Source: Promethearchaeota archaeon
GTDB taxonomy: Archaea; Asgardarchaeota; Odinarchaeia; Odinarchaeales; JBHLKK01
Direction: 5' to 3'
Assembly: GCA_048939465.1 (NCBI GenBank)
Contig: JBHLPL010000002.1
Coordinates: 5,608 to 37,607 of the forward strand
Length of the DNA: 32,000 bases
Positions 1,683 through 29,762 of the stretch are shown piece by piece; position 1 is the stretch's first letter, and each line of letters starts with the position of its first letter. The notes beneath the pieces were generated by a model that saw nothing but the letters and a program-made list of their open reading frames with translations, did not search any database and was not told where the DNA came from. The translations under genes and the position numbers were made by a program.

Positions 1683-2780
1683 CTATTCCCATTTTATCTC
1701 TAAGCCCACTTTCCCTGCCTGCTTGGAAGTGAGCAGTTCCATGCCCTTATCAACATCCCTTATTGGTATTCTATGAGTGAATACCTGAGCTATCTTCTCA
1801 CGGAAGTTTGGAATCCTTAGCAATCCCTTTACCTGAAACCATGTTTCGAACATCAGTCTTCCAGTTATCCCATATATCTTTGCTGCTTTGAAAACCACCA
1901 GATTAGTAAAATCCAACTCAAAGGGACGATGATAGATCCCCAGTACGGAAGCTCTTCCCCCAGGAGTAAGTACTTCTAATCCCTGCCTCAAAGCGGAAGC
2001 TGCGCCCGACATTTCCAAGACAACATCGACTCCAACACCATCCGTTGCGTCCGTAATTACCTTGACAAGCTTGTCTCCTTCCTCCTTTGCGCTTAGAACC
2101 ATATCTGCCCCCATTTTTCTTGCCAGATCCAGCCTTATCCTATTGCTCCCACCTCCAACAGCAATGACTTGTTGGGCACCAAACGCCTTTGCAGCGGTTA
2201 TGGCCATAAGCCCAGTCGGACCAGTGCCAAAAATAGCAATATTCTTTCCAGCAATGTCCTCTACATTGCCTTTCGGAAGGAGCGTATGAACGGAATTTCC
2301 CAAGGGCTCTTGAACAGACATTAGAAATGGGTCTAATTTAGGATCATTTTTCCAAGCATTCCACTCTGGAAGAGAAAAATATTCCGCAAACACACCGTCT
2401 ATGTCAACACCAAGTATCTTCATATTTTGACAAACGTGCATCCGACCAGTCCTGCACTGATAATCCATGAAATCGACTATATGCGTTTCGGCCGATATTA
2501 GATCGCCAACCTGAAGGGATGTAACCTCCTTGCCAACTTCTACGACTTCAGCTGCGACCTCATGGCCAGGAATAAAAGGTATTCTTTTTATTCTCTGCTG
2601 TGCCCAATCATCCCATTCCCAGATATGAACATCGGTTCCGCAGATCGAAGAGGCTACTACTTTAGCGAGTACATCTCGTGATCCAATTCTTGGCATCCGC
2701 ACGTTATTGACGAGTTTAGCTCCGGGCCCTCTTTCTTTCTTCATCCAAGCATACATGGACTTACTCTCCCTAAAGCTCAT
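1683..2780 (-). CDS. tdh: L-threonine 3-dehydrogenase-like Zn-dependent MDR dehydrogenase
   Basis: 365 aa; ICGTDVH, GHE, AETHIV..YQCRTG..HVCQN, GTGPTG, GITGRLMFETW; upstream of kbl on the same strand. Confidence 0.85.
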   Translation of the reverse strand: MSFRESKSMYAWMKKERGPGAKLVNNVRMPRIGSRDVLAKVVASSICGTDVHIWEWDDWAQQRIKRIPFIPGHEVAAEVVEVGKEVTSLQVGDLISAETHIVDFMDYQCRTGRMHVCQNMKILGVDIDGVFAEYFSLPEWNAWKNDPKLDPFLMSVQEPLGNSVHTLLPKGNVEDIAGKNIAIFGTGPTGLMAITAAKAFGAQQVIAVGGGSNRIRLDLARKMGADMVLSAKEEGDKLVKVITDATDGVGVDVVLEMSGAASALRQGLEVLTPGGRASVLGIYHRPFELDFTNLVVFKAAKIYGITGRLMFETWFQVKGLLRIPNFREKIAQVFTHRIPIRDVDKGMELLTSKQAGKVGLEIKWE

Positions 2781-5234: not shown

Positions 5235-5681
5235 ATGGAAGGGCCCAAGATAATTGACGCTTCTGATTTGGTTCTAGGAAGACTAGCGAGCGTTGTTGCA
5301 AAACGCTTACTTGCAGGCGAGAGCATCGTGATAGTTAACGCGGAAAAGGCAGTGATAACAGGCAAAAAGACAAGCATTTTGGAGAGATACAGACAGAGAT
5401 TTGGAATTAGAACTCTTACTGCGCCTTGGAGGGGACCGCTTCATTATCGAAGGCCAGACAGATTTGTGAAAAGGACTATTAGGGGTATGCTTCCCTATAA
5501 AACCCCACGAGGAAGAAAGGCCTATAAACGTCTTCTGGTACACATAGGCATTCCAGATGGAGTTGAGGACAAAATGAAAGAAACGCTCCCTCAGGCATCT
5601 ATAGGGCGAACTAAGGGTAGGGGTATACGAGTTTACGAGTTGACCAGGGAATTAGGTTGGATTCCATCCGTGGAGGGGTAA
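5235..5681 (+). CDS. rpl13: 50S ribosomal protein L13 (uL13)
   Basis: [36 protein letters not shown]. Confidence 0.97.
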
Positions 5682-12796: not shown

Positions 12797-14601
12797 TTGA
12801 TAAGACAACCCATTATATCGTTCTTGGGCCACATCGATGTGGGCAAAACAAGTCTCCTAGATAAGATAAGAGGAACAGTAGTTCAGCTTCGAGAGGCAGG
12901 GGGTATAATGTAGTAGCATAGACTACTCCATGCTAGACCCAGCATATCGGAGCTAGCTTCCTGCCCACTTCCGTTATAACAGCCATAGCAAAAGATCTTC
13001 TAAATCAATTCAAGATCAAAGTTACAATACCAGGATTGCTGGTTGTTGATAGCCCTGGGCATGCAGCATTTATGAACTTGAGAAGAAGAGCCGGGAGCGT
13101 CTGTGACATCGCCATTCTTGTGATTGATGTACTGGCAGGCTTTCAGCCTCAAACACACGAGTCCGTCAACATCCTGAAGGAGAGAAATACTCCGTTCCTG
13201 GTGGCGGCAAATAAGATAGATAGGGTTCCCGGATGGAAAGACAAAGAATCAACATCGTTCTTAGAATCTGTAAAGAAACAGGAAGAGTTTGTTAGGAAGA
13301 ATCTTGATCAGAAAATATACGAAATCGTTGGGGCCTTTTCAACAATAGGTTTTGAATCTGAAAGATTTGACAGAGTGGGAGATTTTACTAAGACCATCGC
13401 CATTGTGCCTACAAGTGCAAGAACTGGAGAAGGGATTGCAGAACTCCTGATGGTAATTGCAGGACTTACCCAACAATACATGATGAAACGTTTGGAGATT
13501 TCATCTGAAGGGGGCAGAGGAACAGTTTTGGAGGTCAAGGAGGAACCGGGGCTGGGAATTACCGTTGACACTGTTATCTATGATGGAGTGATCCACAAGG
13601 GAGACACCATCGTGGTAGGGAGCTTGGGTGATCCTATTGTAACTAAGATACGGGCAGTTCTGCTGCCAAAACCCCTTGATGAGATACGCGACCCCCGCGA
13701 ACGATTTGATCCTGTAAAGGAAGTTCAAGCAGCTGCAGGTATCAAGATAGCAGCACCTGCTCTTGAAGGGGCTATTGCTGGAGCCCCTTTGATTGTCGCG
13801 AACACAGAAAAGGAGATTGAAGAAGCAAAGAACGAAATATTGAGTGAGATTGAAAAGATCAGGATATCGACAGACAAAACAGGGATAATACTTAAGGCAG
13901 ACACGCTAGGTTCTTTAGAAGCTATTCTAAAATACTTCCAGGATCAAGGGATTGCAGTCAGAATAGCCGACGTTGGGGATATTTCAAAAAGAGACATAGT
14001 TGAGGCTGAAGTCGTTAAGGAACTTGATCCGCTTTCAGCGATTGTTCTTGGATTTAATGTCAAAGTACTGCCTGATGCCAAAGAGGAATCGGTTAAACAT
14101 GAAATTCCGATACTCCAAAACAGGATAATTTACCGATTGTTTGAGGAATATGACAATTGGCTATTTGAGAGGAGGGAAGAGCGAAAGAGAGAAGCATTGA
14201 AGACAGCCGTAAAACCAGGAAAGGTAAAAATCATTCCAGAATATATTTTTCGGCAAAGTAAGCCCGCGATCGTCGGTGTTGATGTTCTTAGCGGGCAAAT
14301 AGTCTCTCGGGTCAACTTGATAAAAGAGGATGGGAGCAGAGTAGGAACAATTCTTCAGATACAGGACAAAGGAGAAGTAATTCCTATTGCCAAGGCGGGA
14401 CAAGCTGTCGCCATTTCAATCAGGGGAGCCACCGTTGGTCGACAGATAAATGAGAATGACGTTCTATATGTCGATATGCCAGAAAGAGATGTCAGACTCT
14501 TCAAAGAACGTTTCAGAGACGAACTCTCTGTGGGTGAGTTGGAAGCTTTAGATGAATTAATCGAGATAAAGAGGAAATCAGATCCTACATGGGGTGCATA
14601 A
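12797..14601 (+). CDS. infB: Translation initiation factor aIF5B (IF-2); two exons 12797-12907 and 12937-14601, 591 aa after splicing
   Basis: Exon 1 (TTG) [36 protein letters not shown] joins exon 2 [19 protein letters not shown]; the ORF track shows only the part from 13036. Confidence 0.95.
12908..12936 (+). other. 29-nt BHB-type intron in infB mRNA
   Basis: Outer helix GGG/CCC, central helix GGUA/UGCU, bulges UA^A and AG^A, inner stem UG.AGUAG/CUACU.CA; contains in-frame TAG TAG; removal restores GGI-TQHIG. Confidence 0.88.
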
Positions 14602-22840: not shown

Positions 22841-23145
22841 TTGATCGCCTCGAGGAAACTCCGACCAAAAGGACGGAGAGGGATTAAGGAGTCGATGAAT
22901 GCTATTGGGACATACGCACCAATAGATTTGAAGTCACACCTCTCTTCGATGTGGAAACAGCTAATGACGGATGAGGGTGGGCGCCATGGACTGATAGCCA
23001 CTGTATCGCCTGACGCTATATGCAGATTACTGGGTTCAGACGCTTTGGACTTGCTGCCAATCTGGCCTGTGATGCGACCAAAGCCCATTTGGGAATTAAG
23101 GTCCAGCATAGTCATAAACTCCTTCACTAAGATGGAGTATTTCAT
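22841..23145 (+). mobile_element. 305-bp IS200/IS605-like mini-element (copy A) inserted at the bud32/rdgB overlap
   Basis: Follows TTCAT (22836-22840) and ends in TTCAT (23141-23145); left-end hairpin ACTCCGACC-AAAA-GGACGGAG; collinear with copy B. Confidence 0.82.
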
Positions 23146-23771
23146 CTATCTTCGATATATCGTCCACGTCTCTCGACCTCCCCTATGCGAAGTATAGCAT
23201 CCTCCGCATCCTTGCCCAAGACCTCACGATAACCAGCCAAAACTGCTTCGAAAAACTCTTCAGCGTGTTGATAGTGAGTACTTTGTAAGGCACGCTGCAT
23301 AAGGTGGAGATCCACTCCTTTATGTTCAATTTCTGATGAGTGCTCACCCAATCCAAAATCTATGAAGTATATTTGCTTTTCAGAGGTCAAGATCATATTT
23401 GAGGTAGTTAAATCACCATGTATAAGTCCGTTCTTATGGAGACGTCCGATTGAGCGTCCTACACAGGTACAGACTCTTTTCTGTTCTTGTCTTGTAATTT
23501 CATTAATAACATTCTTAAGCTTCTGCCCATCAATGTATTCGTAAATGATGGTGGTTTTAGGAACATCTACTTGGCATATTGCCGGAGTGGAAACCCCAGC
23601 TTTTCTAGCACTGCTGAACATCTTGGCTTCATGAATCGTCCTGTATTGCCTGATCCTTAGATCCAGTTCAGGAATTCGATATCTCTTTGCTACCCTGCAC
23701 TTCCGTACGACAACTCTGTCGTACCACTTCTCCTTAAACAAATAAGCTTCAGCACCTTTGGCCATGAGCAA
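23142..23771 (-). CDS. bud32: KEOPS kinase Bud32 (piD261/PRPK)
   Basis: KGAEA, RTIHEAKM, IHGDLTTSNM, IDFGLG, VDLHLM, RGRY. Confidence 0.95.
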   Translation of the reverse strand: MLMAKGAEAYLFKEKWYDRVVVRKCRVAKRYRIPELDLRIRQYRTIHEAKMFSSARKAGVSTPAICQVDVPKTTIIYEYIDGQKLKNVINEITRQEQKRVCTCVGRSIGRLHKNGLIHGDLTTSNMILTSEKQIYFIDFGLGEHSSEIEHKGVDLHLMQRALQSTHYQHAEEFFEAVLAGYREVLGKDAEDAILRIGEVERRGRYIEDR

Positions 23772-23783
23772 CTTGATCCTCCC

Positions 23784-24789
23784 CTAATCTCTCCAGACAA
23801 TATCAACTTCATCGAGTCGCCATTTTGGCTTTACGCTACTATTTTTTAATTTCAAAACCTGTCCATGTTTGTACTGTAACATCCCTGTCCATGCTATCAT
23901 CGCTCCATTGTCCCCAGAGAATCTGTTCGAGACCACACGAAACTTTGCATTATGCTCCTTAGCAATGGATTTAAGCATCTCCTGCAGTCTTTTGTTTGCA
24001 GCTACACCTCCCGTTAATAGAACAGCAGGCTTTTCAGTGTGTGCGAGGGCACGCTCCGTAACTTCGGTCAACATTGAAAATGCAACTTCCTGTAAGCTGA
24101 AACAAAGATCTTCGATTCTGTTCTCATGAAGTTTGTTTGTTGCAGCAGTTAGGAGACCGGAATAGGATAAGTCCATACCTTTGACAGTGTAGGGTAAATC
24201 AATGAACCGCTTGCCTTTCTTTGCTAACCTTTCTATCTTGGGGCCACCTGGATGTTTGAGTCCTGCTGAACGCGCAAAAGCATCGAGCAAATTACCTATG
24301 GGAATATCTAGGGTTTCCCCAAACACACGATACCTACCTCCGTCATAGGCCGCGACTATGGTATTGCCACCTGAAACATACAAAGTAACCGGATCTTCCG
24401 TATTGGAAGCAAGGCGCCCTATCTCTATATGAGCGACACAGTGATTCACACCGACGAGCGGGACTTCAGTAACTAACGCCAAAGCTCGAGCAGCAACAGC
24501 AGCAGTCCTAAGACAGGGACCTTTCAGCAAACTGTTGGCAGAGTTTTAAACCGGGTCCCTGAGAGAATGCCACGAATTCAATGTCGCTCAGGCTTATCTT
24601 TGCTTCTTCTACTGCTCTTACAATAGTTTTCTCTGCAACCCGTACATGGTGTTGGGCCGCTTCTCGAGGATGGATGCCACCCGTTTCTGGTTGATACACG
24701 CTTTCAACACTCGTAAGGATTCTTCCTTCAGGCGTTACTATGCCAACACTGAACGTGTGGGCAGTTCCCTCAATACCCAAACCCACCAC
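23784..24789 (-). CDS. kae1: tRNA t6A synthase Kae1; two exons 24789-24548 and 24522-23784, 326 aa after splicing
   Basis: LGIEGTAHTFSVG, GGIHPREAAQHH, AFSQGPGL|GPCLR, VNHCVAH, VSGGNT, GGVAAN, DNGAMIA; the ORF track splits it into two frames. Confidence 0.95.
24523..24547 (-). other. 25-nt BHB-type intron in kae1 mRNA
   Basis: 8-bp outer helix CAGGGACC/GGUCCCUG, central helix CGGU/GCUG, bulges UU^A and AA^A, inner stem AAACU/AGUUU; removal restores GPGLGPCLR. Confidence 0.92.
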
Positions 24790-24856
24790 TATTAACACCT
24801 CAAGAAAGGAAGATAAATACTATGATTTAAAAAACAACTGTTTTTGGCAGTGATTT

Positions 24857-28415: not shown

Positions 28416-29759
28416 TCATTTTCCAGCTACCTGAACATCTTCAAATCTCACATAAGGCGACACACAGCTGAACGCGGTAGCTCCAGAGATTATTTCTGCC
28501 TTATTCGAAATCCCTGAGATTTTGTTGATCATTTCGAAAAAGTCTCCAGACACAAGTCCGCCTTTAACAGCGTCCCCAATTTTGCCATTCTTAATATGAA
28601 ACGCGTTTCTTATTTCAGCAGAGAATTGACCTGAAGTTGGACTGGGGTTTAGCCAGCTAAACGAGTCCAAAAGCAATCCACTCTCTGTTTCCCCTATTAA
28701 TGCTTCCAAAGATTTGTTACCTGGTAAGATTCTTAGATTGGTCGCCTGATTCTTAGGCTTCATTTTGAACTTATTCTCCACATAGTAAGCTACGAATTGC
28801 TGGCGAATCCCATTTCCCGTCGACCTCTGACCATACTGAGAACCTAGATATTCATCGTAAAGGTAATTCTTGAAAACTCCTTTTTCAATAAGTTGAGTCG
28901 TGGCTTGGGGATTTCCTTCATCATCAAAGGGTGAGGACTGCATACCATAAGGAAATAGTCCGTCATCTAATACATTTAGGATTTCAGATGCGATTCTCTC
29001 ATTTGGTTTAAACTTCGAGAAACCTTCCTTCCGAGCCAGCCCAGTTGCGTGAACACCGATTGTGGGAACTAGTCCGTCACAAACCATCGCCGGAGAGAAG
29101 ATTATGGTCATTTTTCCTGTTTCAGGCTCTACTGCACGGAGCATTGAAATTGCGTTTTTTGACCATTCACTTATAAGCTTGGGAGGAGCATCTTGAACTC
29201 TTCTTGCGTACCTCATAGTCCAGTATTCGCCGATCTTGTTTGCTTCTTTGGCTTTTATAGCTATCTCCATAAACATGTAAGTCTCGTCCTTCGTTAGATT
29301 CACACCTTGACTATTCACGATCTCAGTCGTCATATTGTAACATCTTACCTTTCCAAAGGTAACTTCAGCCCCTTTCGGAAGATCTTCTTGCATCTGAGTA
29401 GTGTATTCTTCAATCACGGCTTCCGGCTCATTCCTTATTCTTGGATCTACGATTTCAACAGATTCTGTCGGGCGTGGAACAGGAAACGAGAAGTCAGGAA
29501 CCTCATTGATCTTCGCAATATCAAGAGCGGCGTCGACAGAGCGAGCAATGGACTCTTTTTTCAAACCGTATGAAAAAGCAAGTCCAACTCCTCCTTTGTG
29601 TGCAATCCTTACAGAATAGCCCACAGGTCTGGATGAGTTAATAAGAACGGTTTTCCCCTGTCTTATATGAGCTTCGGTAATCGTGGGTCTTTGAAGAAAG
29701 ATTTCGAAATGTTCGATCTTTTTATCATGAATATCTTTCAGTATAGGTTCATAGCTCAT
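28416..29759 (-). CDS. pmbA: TldE/PmbA family protein
   Basis: 447 aa; SSPFDDEG, LIEKGVFKNYLYD, STGNG, GLVSGDF; downstream partner of tldD. Confidence 0.88.
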   Translation of the reverse strand: MSYEPILKDIHDKKIEHFEIFLQRPTITEAHIRQGKTVLINSSRPVGYSVRIAHKGGVGLAFSYGLKKESIARSVDAALDIAKINEVPDFSFPVPRPTESVEIVDPRIRNEPEAVIEEYTTQMQEDLPKGAEVTFGKVRCYNMTTEIVNSQGVNLTKDETYMFMEIAIKAKEANKIGEYWTMRYARRVQDAPPKLISEWSKNAISMLRAVEPETGKMTIIFSPAMVCDGLVPTIGVHATGLARKEGFSKFKPNERIASEILNVLDDGLFPYGMQSSPFDDEGNPQATTQLIEKGVFKNYLYDEYLGSQYGQRSTGNGIRQQFVAYYVENKFKMKPKNQATNLRILPGNKSLEALIGETESGLLLDSFSWLNPSPTSGQFSAEIRNAFHIKNGKIGDAVKGGLVSGDFFEMINKISGISNKAEIISGATAFSCVSPYVRFEDVQVAGK

Positions 29760-29762
29760 TAT

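Follow-up and report, generated by a model that had tools for sequence, protein, structure and literature searches.

Comparative evidence for a bulge-helix-bulge intron within the kae1 coding sequence of Asgard archaea

A bulge-helix-bulge (BHB) intron in the pre-mRNA of cbf5 is known from Crenarchaeota, among them Aeropyrum and Sulfolobus (Watanabe 2002; Yokobori 2009, PMC2738675). A paper from 2020 recognises no BHB intron in archaeal coding sequences apart from this crenarchaeal one, and describes a second mRNA intron in the 5´ untranslated region (UTR) of HVO_1309 in Haloferax volcanii (PMC7714728). Removal of the cbf5 intron by the tRNA-splicing endonuclease has been demonstrated experimentally, and the intron has a history of gains and losses. 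Cleavage of the HVO_1309 motif by the splicing endonuclease EndA has been confirmed both in vivo and in vitro. Papers on Asgard archaea report tRNA introns only, and one of them describes the BHB motif in the same terms as used below (PMC11291895; bioRxiv 10.64898/2026.10.13.758758). Jordiarchaeia/Freyrarchaeaceae are reported to be extremely rich in tRNA introns and mostly to encode two EndA paralogues. Here, we describe an interruption of kae1, encoding the catalytic subunit of the t6A (N6-threonylcarbamoyladenosine) synthase, in a member of the Odinarchaeales (Promethearchaeota archaeon, assembly GCA_048939465.1). It lies in a stretch of 32,000 nt, hereafter the window, corresponding to positions 5,608 to 37,607 of contig JBHLPL010000002.1.

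The kae1 insertion resembles the cbf5 intron in being a short, lineage-restricted BHB intron within the coding sequence of an RNA-modification enzyme. It differs in the gene affected, in its occurrence in Asgard archaea rather than Thermoproteota, and in size, kae1 introns being as short as 13–14 nt. Furthermore, we infer its splicing from sequence, whereas that of cbf5 rests on experiment. With HVO_1309 it shares the presence of a BHB in an mRNA, but the HVO_1309 intron is located in the 5´ UTR and its removal rebuilds no reading frame. With the tRNA introns of Asgard archaea it shares the motif and presumably the processing enzymes, and the genome under study is itself rich in tRNA introns. 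Unlike these, the kae1 substrate is an mRNA in which the outer helix also encodes the conserved residues QGP and GPC, and the structure is therefore kept through synonymous sites. A literature search, with subscription journals mostly outside its coverage, returned no report of a BHB intron in kae1 or in any Asgard mRNA, and the kae1 intron very probably adds to the known, extremely small class of BHB introns in archaeal coding sequences.

The gene is encoded on the minus strand and is broken by 25 nt between GPGL and GPCLR (24523–24547). We hold it highly probable that this segment is an obligatorily spliced BHB intron of the kae1 pre-mRNA. The N-terminal open reading frame (ORF; 24508–24798, 96 aa) reads ...FSQGPGL near its end and then runs on for 12 unrelated residues to its stop codon, and the C-terminal ORF (23784–24530, 248 aa) starts with MLK-GPCLRTAAVAAR. 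The two match the Pfam family TsaD (Kae1/TsaD) at profile positions 12–62 and 64–264 (E 6e-63), respectively; the matches abut exactly, and we are therefore dealing with one gene cut at one point. A preliminary description made from the sequence had already proposed a 25-nt insertion that splits the GPGL-GPCLR motif and shifts the frame, in agreement with the sequence, the ORFs and the Pfam matches considered together. In silico splicing restores GPGLGPCLR and results in a product without stop codons of 329 aa from the GTG at 24798, or of 326 aa from the next in-frame GTG; the 326-aa Kae1 of the preliminary description thus holds for the later start only. The predicted spliced junction in this genome is GGACCCGGTTT|AGGTCCCTGT.

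In archaeal pre-tRNAs, the endonuclease cleaves each bulge of the BHB on the 3´ side of its second nucleotide. In kae1, these canonical cuts would remove precisely the 25 nt and join GGU UU|A GGU CCC UGU, by which GPGL is linked to GPCLR and the frame is restored. The helices and bulges on which this is based (Table 1) had been proposed from inspection of the sequence, and the minimum free energy (MFE) fold of 24505–24570, computed without constraints, is identical. Of the earlier statement that two removal registers restore the protein and that one of them fits the BHB geometry, the fit of the canonical cuts is borne out. A cut shifted by one base produces the identical mRNA because of an A/A ambiguity; cDNA is therefore unable to separate the two 25-nt registers. 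Across both strands of the 1.96-Mb genome (3.9 Mb; intron length 11–150 nt), only 46 sites have a motif of this strictness, which puts the probability that one coincides by chance with the register restoring GPGL|GPCLR at about 1e-5 per position.

Table 1. Features of the kae1 locus, in coordinates of the window
Feature	Position	Strand	Description and basis
kae1 exon 1	24548..24798	-	GTG start at 24798; ends ...FSQGPG plus the two first bases of a Leu codon; ORF list, Pfam TsaD 12-62, spliced translation
BHB intron (predicted), 25 nt	24523..24547	-	AAAACTCTGCCAACAGTTTGCTGAA; removal joins GPGL to GPCLR, giving a 329-aa ORF without internal stop
kae1 exon 2, including stop codon	23784..24522	-	Pfam TsaD 64-264, E 6e-63
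Whole hBHBh' motif	24514..24561	-	MFE fold, RNAalifold consensus of 16 homologous sites, pair counts
Outer exon-exon helix, 8 bp	24554-24561 with 24514-24521	-	CAGGGACC/GGUCCCUG
Central helix, 4 bp	24550-24553 with 24525-24528	-	CGGU/GCUG, two G-U pairs
Bulges, 3 nt each, on opposite strands	5' 24547-24549, 3' 24522-24524	-	UUA and AAA
Inner intron stem, 5 bp, with 8-nt loop	24542-24546 with 24529-24533	-	AAACU/AGUUU
bud32, KEOPS kinase partner of Kae1	23142..23771	-	Pfam Pkinase/RIO1; 12 nt downstream of kae1

A search for TsaD in 41, and then in 400, genomes of the phylum places the interruption in a defined set of relatives. In the 400-genome survey, kae1 is split at profile position 62/64 in every member with a match of four families, namely the own genus or family (f1; 3/3), Odinarchaeia of the same order as the host (f2; 4/4), and two families of Jordiarchaeia (f7 and f19; 5/5 each), f19 including a metagenome-assembled genome (MAG) labelled Jordarchaeia. 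The same-site split is confined to these families, and the ~365 other surveyed genomes have a single intact match. In the 17 genomes, the inserts between GPGL and GPCLR measure 25, 25, 25, 28, 30, 32, 26, 14, 14, 14, 13, 14, 29, 28, 29, 29 and 29 nt (28 nt in G003 and 13 nt in G139). A homologous intron of 28 nt is also carried by kae1 of the closed Freyarchaeia genome of PMC11291895. The helix-bulge-helix-bulge-helix (hBHBh') layout is common to all 17, and the canonical cuts restore motif and frame in all of them, although the intron sequences are unrelated between families except for the motif. Comparison with intron-less orthologues, as envisaged in the preliminary description, gives a uniform picture in which 91 of 91 genes from other Asgard classes, Bathyarchaeia and euryarchaea are contiguous at GPG[LM]GP.L. 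Two further breaks in kae1 were considered as introns and discarded. A second break in G141 (contig C185) is a scaffold duplication at a run of N with duplicated flanks, and a break in G014 (contig C121) is a 1-nt frameshift near GLLTAT.

The structure is maintained by compensatory changes. In an alignment of 16 homologous sites, 98.2% of the cells assigned to the proposed structure are paired and 6/14 pairs show double changes, and RNAalifold returns the same structure from these sites when it is not supplied. The covariation score is 0.507 compared to 0.199 in shuffles, none of which reaches the observed value (0/500), and it drops to 0.145 or below when the partners are slid by 1–3 columns. 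Two of the pairs involve synonymous positions of the exons. The most telling one, pair 12–56, comprising the third positions of the two Gly codons in QGP and GPC, is found as UA, CG, GC, AU, UG and GU. In the other, the third position of the Gln codon covaries with the third position of the Pro codon (GC, AU, GU). In the 91 genes that lack the intron, complementarity at these two pairs is at chance level (35% and 36%), and the outer helix of 8 bp is complete in only 5 of them. As the positions covary with the insert and pair at random without it, the exon-exon helix is under selection in the intron-bearing genes only. The codons for QGP and GPC are intrinsically complementary at 6/8 outer positions (CA.GG.CC / GG.CC.UG, i.e. 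GGNCC twice; QGPGLGPC in all archaea sampled). This built-in complementarity may have predisposed the site to an intron, making it a possible proto-splice site.

The intron is old, being fixed at the same codon in the lineage of the Odinarchaeia order and in Jordiarchaeia, and derives from one or two ancient gains. In a Kae1 tree of 47 rows, from which two badly extracted sequences (L006 and L029) were left out, the carriers form two clades, one uniting the own genus with Odinarchaeia (93/89) and one uniting f7 with f19 (96/94). The backbone is unresolved, and forcing a single carrier clade costs 4.9 log-likelihood units (p = 0.11 in the approximately unbiased, AU, test); one ancient gain and two gains are both possible. 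The 14-nt introns resemble those of Odinarchaeia minus the hairpin loop (A-GC...AAGC), a likeness in sequence that hints at common descent. A different history would be that of a genuine BHB intron that is recent and mobile, and was acquired horizontally together with a homing-endonuclease gene. This we find very improbable. No homing-endonuclease gene flanks kae1 in the window or in the Odinarchaeia and Jordarchaeia loci, where the neighbours are BtpA, bud32, Ham1, small GTPases, DUF359 and S24e. Moreover, the intron is fixed throughout the four families as far as they were sampled, and the carrier clades are well supported and match taxonomy, as would fit vertical descent.

The split gene appears to be the only source of Kae1 in these organisms. 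In the host genome, a MAG of 152 contigs and 91% completeness, the TsaD-family matches are solely the two kae1 pieces of the window, and in the closed relatives G003 and G040 the split kae1 is likewise the only copy. An intact paralogue elsewhere, named in the preliminary description as an observation that would speak against splicing, is thus not found in the genome. These data also bear on the suggestion that kae1 is a pseudogene, or that its two ORFs are translated separately to form a two-piece Kae1, which we judge slightly less probable still than recent mobility. The own genus does have a TTG 9 nt upstream of GPCLR in the frame of exon 2, from which the listed 248-aa ORF starts. However, 14/17 intron-bearing genes lack any ATG, GTG or TTG in the stretch from the last upstream stop codon to GPCLR, and the second half is left without a start codon. 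The suggestion is also contradicted by strong purifying selection on both halves across two classes, by normal branch lengths in the tree, and by the universality of kae1, which was found in 14/14 control genomes and has no other copy in these genomes, two of them closed. In addition, the break is inside the most conserved loop of the protein, and neither decay nor error would be expected to recur at one codon together with a conserved RNA structure.

The least probable of the biological alternatives is translational recoding, in which the ribosome shifts frame at the insert or hops over it, as in T4 gene 60, and no splicing takes place. The 25-nt insert of the own genus (3n+1) would by itself look like a frameshift, and +1 frameshifting was another contrary outcome considered in the preliminary description. 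It is contradicted by the comparison across genomes, since the homologous inserts of 13–32 nt cover all three frame classes and the in-frame 30-nt insert of G004 (Odinarchaeia, f2) contains two TAA codons. The frame of exon 1 encounters a stop 1–13 codons past the junction in every intron-bearing genome. There is no matched pair of take-off and landing codons, in that the UUA on the 5´ side has as its counterpart neither UUA nor UUG ahead of the 3´ GGU, and recoding does not require the BHB geometry that covariation preserves. An assembly error is contradicted by the conservation of the insert and by DNA contigs from four studies, some of them possibly from the source sample, in which the insertion is unchanged and without indel or joint.

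Several observations weigh against the interpretation as a spliced intron and have to be set beside the above. The fold z-score of the single sequence is -1.65, which is weak by itself; the case is carried by geometry, register and comparative data, not by fold energy. The shuffle test overstates the significance of the covariation because kin are not independent, although the controls with slid partners and with intron-less genes are unaffected by this. Mismatches are seen in one or two cells per helix (A-C in G001 and G138, G-A in G031, and A-A in G139). In G139 and G140, just 1 bp is left of the inner helix, and an endonuclease tolerant of relaxed motifs is therefore needed. Finally, a second kae1 could, strictly speaking, lie in the missing 9% of the MAG, a reservation that concerns this genome alone.

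As a model for the maturation of the kae1 pre-mRNA, we propose that the exon flanks pair after transcription, such that the QGP codons CAGGGACC would be joined with the GPC codons GGUCCCUG. The 3´ end of the intron would base-pair with the four exon 1 nucleotides that precede the bulge, completing the hBHBh' structure. EndA would then cleave both 3-nt bulges on the 3´ side of their second nucleotide, after which RtcB would ligate the exons and probably also close the intron into a circle. Once spliced, the mRNA (...GGU UUA GGU CCC UGU...) would encode an intact Kae1 of 329 aa, the only catalytic subunit of the t6A synthase in the genome. Unspliced mRNA yields nothing but a dead-end peptide of 96 aa, and splicing would therefore be obligatory. 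While motif, register, conservation, covariation, single gene copy and presence of the enzymes are observed, cleavage and ligation of the kae1 pre-mRNA in vivo very probably occur.

The genome is equipped for this type of processing. It encodes two EndA paralogues (PF01974), located on contigs C90 (204 aa) and C139 (191 aa), one ORF having the catalytic pattern Y...H...K and the other lacking the His; from these residues, the pair probably represents the catalytic alpha and structural beta subunits of an (alpha-beta)2 enzyme. There are two RtcB genes (PF01139). One of them (contig C31:2961-5708 of the host genome, G000) is a 973-aa open frame in which ~1.4 kb of in-frame sequence interrupts the profile, splitting the match into 1–57 and 45–426; this insertion is probably an intein. 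ARAGORN finds 25 tRNAs in the whole genome, 19 of which have an intron call (7–58 nt), a pattern typical of heavily interrupted tRNA genes, and many tRNAs were probably missed on account of multiple or non-canonical introns. The cbf5 gene of the genome gives one uninterrupted TruB_N match.

Turning to the surroundings of kae1, the gene is preceded by BtpA according to Pfam and probably shares an operon with bud32. The gene order kae1-bud32-Ham1(rdgB) is common to the window and to the Odinarchaeia and Jordarchaeia loci. In the window, bud32 and Ham1 are ~300 nt apart (22841–23145). The window has no match in Rfam, and no tRNA was found in it by ARAGORN.

Other genes of the genome are split in ways reminiscent of kae1. 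In aIF5B (infB), on the plus strand of the window, a 29-nt insert with UAG UAG (12908–12936) separates REAGGI from TQHIG. The corresponding BHB (motif ~12896–12943) has an outer helix of 3 bp, a central helix GGUA/UGCU, bulges UAA and AGA, and an inner stem with 7/8 pairs (fold z = -3.8). The flanking ORFs, 38 aa at the N-terminus and 521 aa, match consecutive parts of GTP_EFTU, and the aIF5B BHB intron is confirmed at the level of fold and ORFs. In pyrG (contig C116; L138 ~2300–2345, minus strand), a 31-nt insert comes after MTKYIFVVGGVMSGI, beyond which the protein resumes with GKG... in another frame, and the Pfam CTP_synth_N match does not begin until profile position 14. The pyrG site contains a GGGC/GCCU central helix together with AUA and AAA bulges, but these are absent from the MFE fold. 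The pieces of ahcY (AdoHcyase; contig C118:315-951; L135, L137), covering profile positions 1–141 and then 183–221 with internal TGA and TAG, are compatible with several micro-introns. On the plus strand at ~29690–29760, a strict BHB-like match was discarded as a split gene, as it sits between two separate TldD/PmbA genes. A genome-wide scan for motifs that restore ORFs at loose thresholds gave 44 hits at the correct register compared to 43–50 at cuts shifted by 1–2 nt; such a scan has no power to count mRNA introns and misses outer helices of 3 bp such as that of aIF5B. One possibility, which we consider evenly balanced between true and false, is that Odinarchaeia- and Jordiarchaeia-type Asgard archaea have a genome-wide layer of obligatory mRNA splicing by EndA and RtcB. 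It would act on BHB micro-introns of 13–35 nt in the most conserved motifs of core genes, with kae1, aIF5B, pyrG and ahcY as candidates.

In conclusion, kae1 would be the second coding-sequence case after cbf5, one that is deeply conserved, affects a universal, essential gene and occurs in Asgard archaea. For annotation, the consequence is that, unless the intron is taken into account, kae1 of these genomes is recorded as a pseudogene or in two fragments, which distorts marker-gene sets and estimates of completeness from universal genes. The introns of 13–14 nt would be very small natural substrates with regard to the specificity of EndA, and the site illustrates how a coding motif, GGNCC...GGNCC (GP...GP), can act as a ready-made splice-site helix. 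On a more speculative note, Kae1 synthesis may be tied to the tRNA-splicing capacity of the cell, which would amount to a regulatory link. If the kae1 case is true, mRNAs are routinely processed by the enzymes of tRNA splicing in the lineage closest to eukaryotes. If the splicing layer extends genome-wide, the closest prokaryotic relatives of eukaryotes would need their tRNA-splicing machinery to express genes for translation and tRNA modification.
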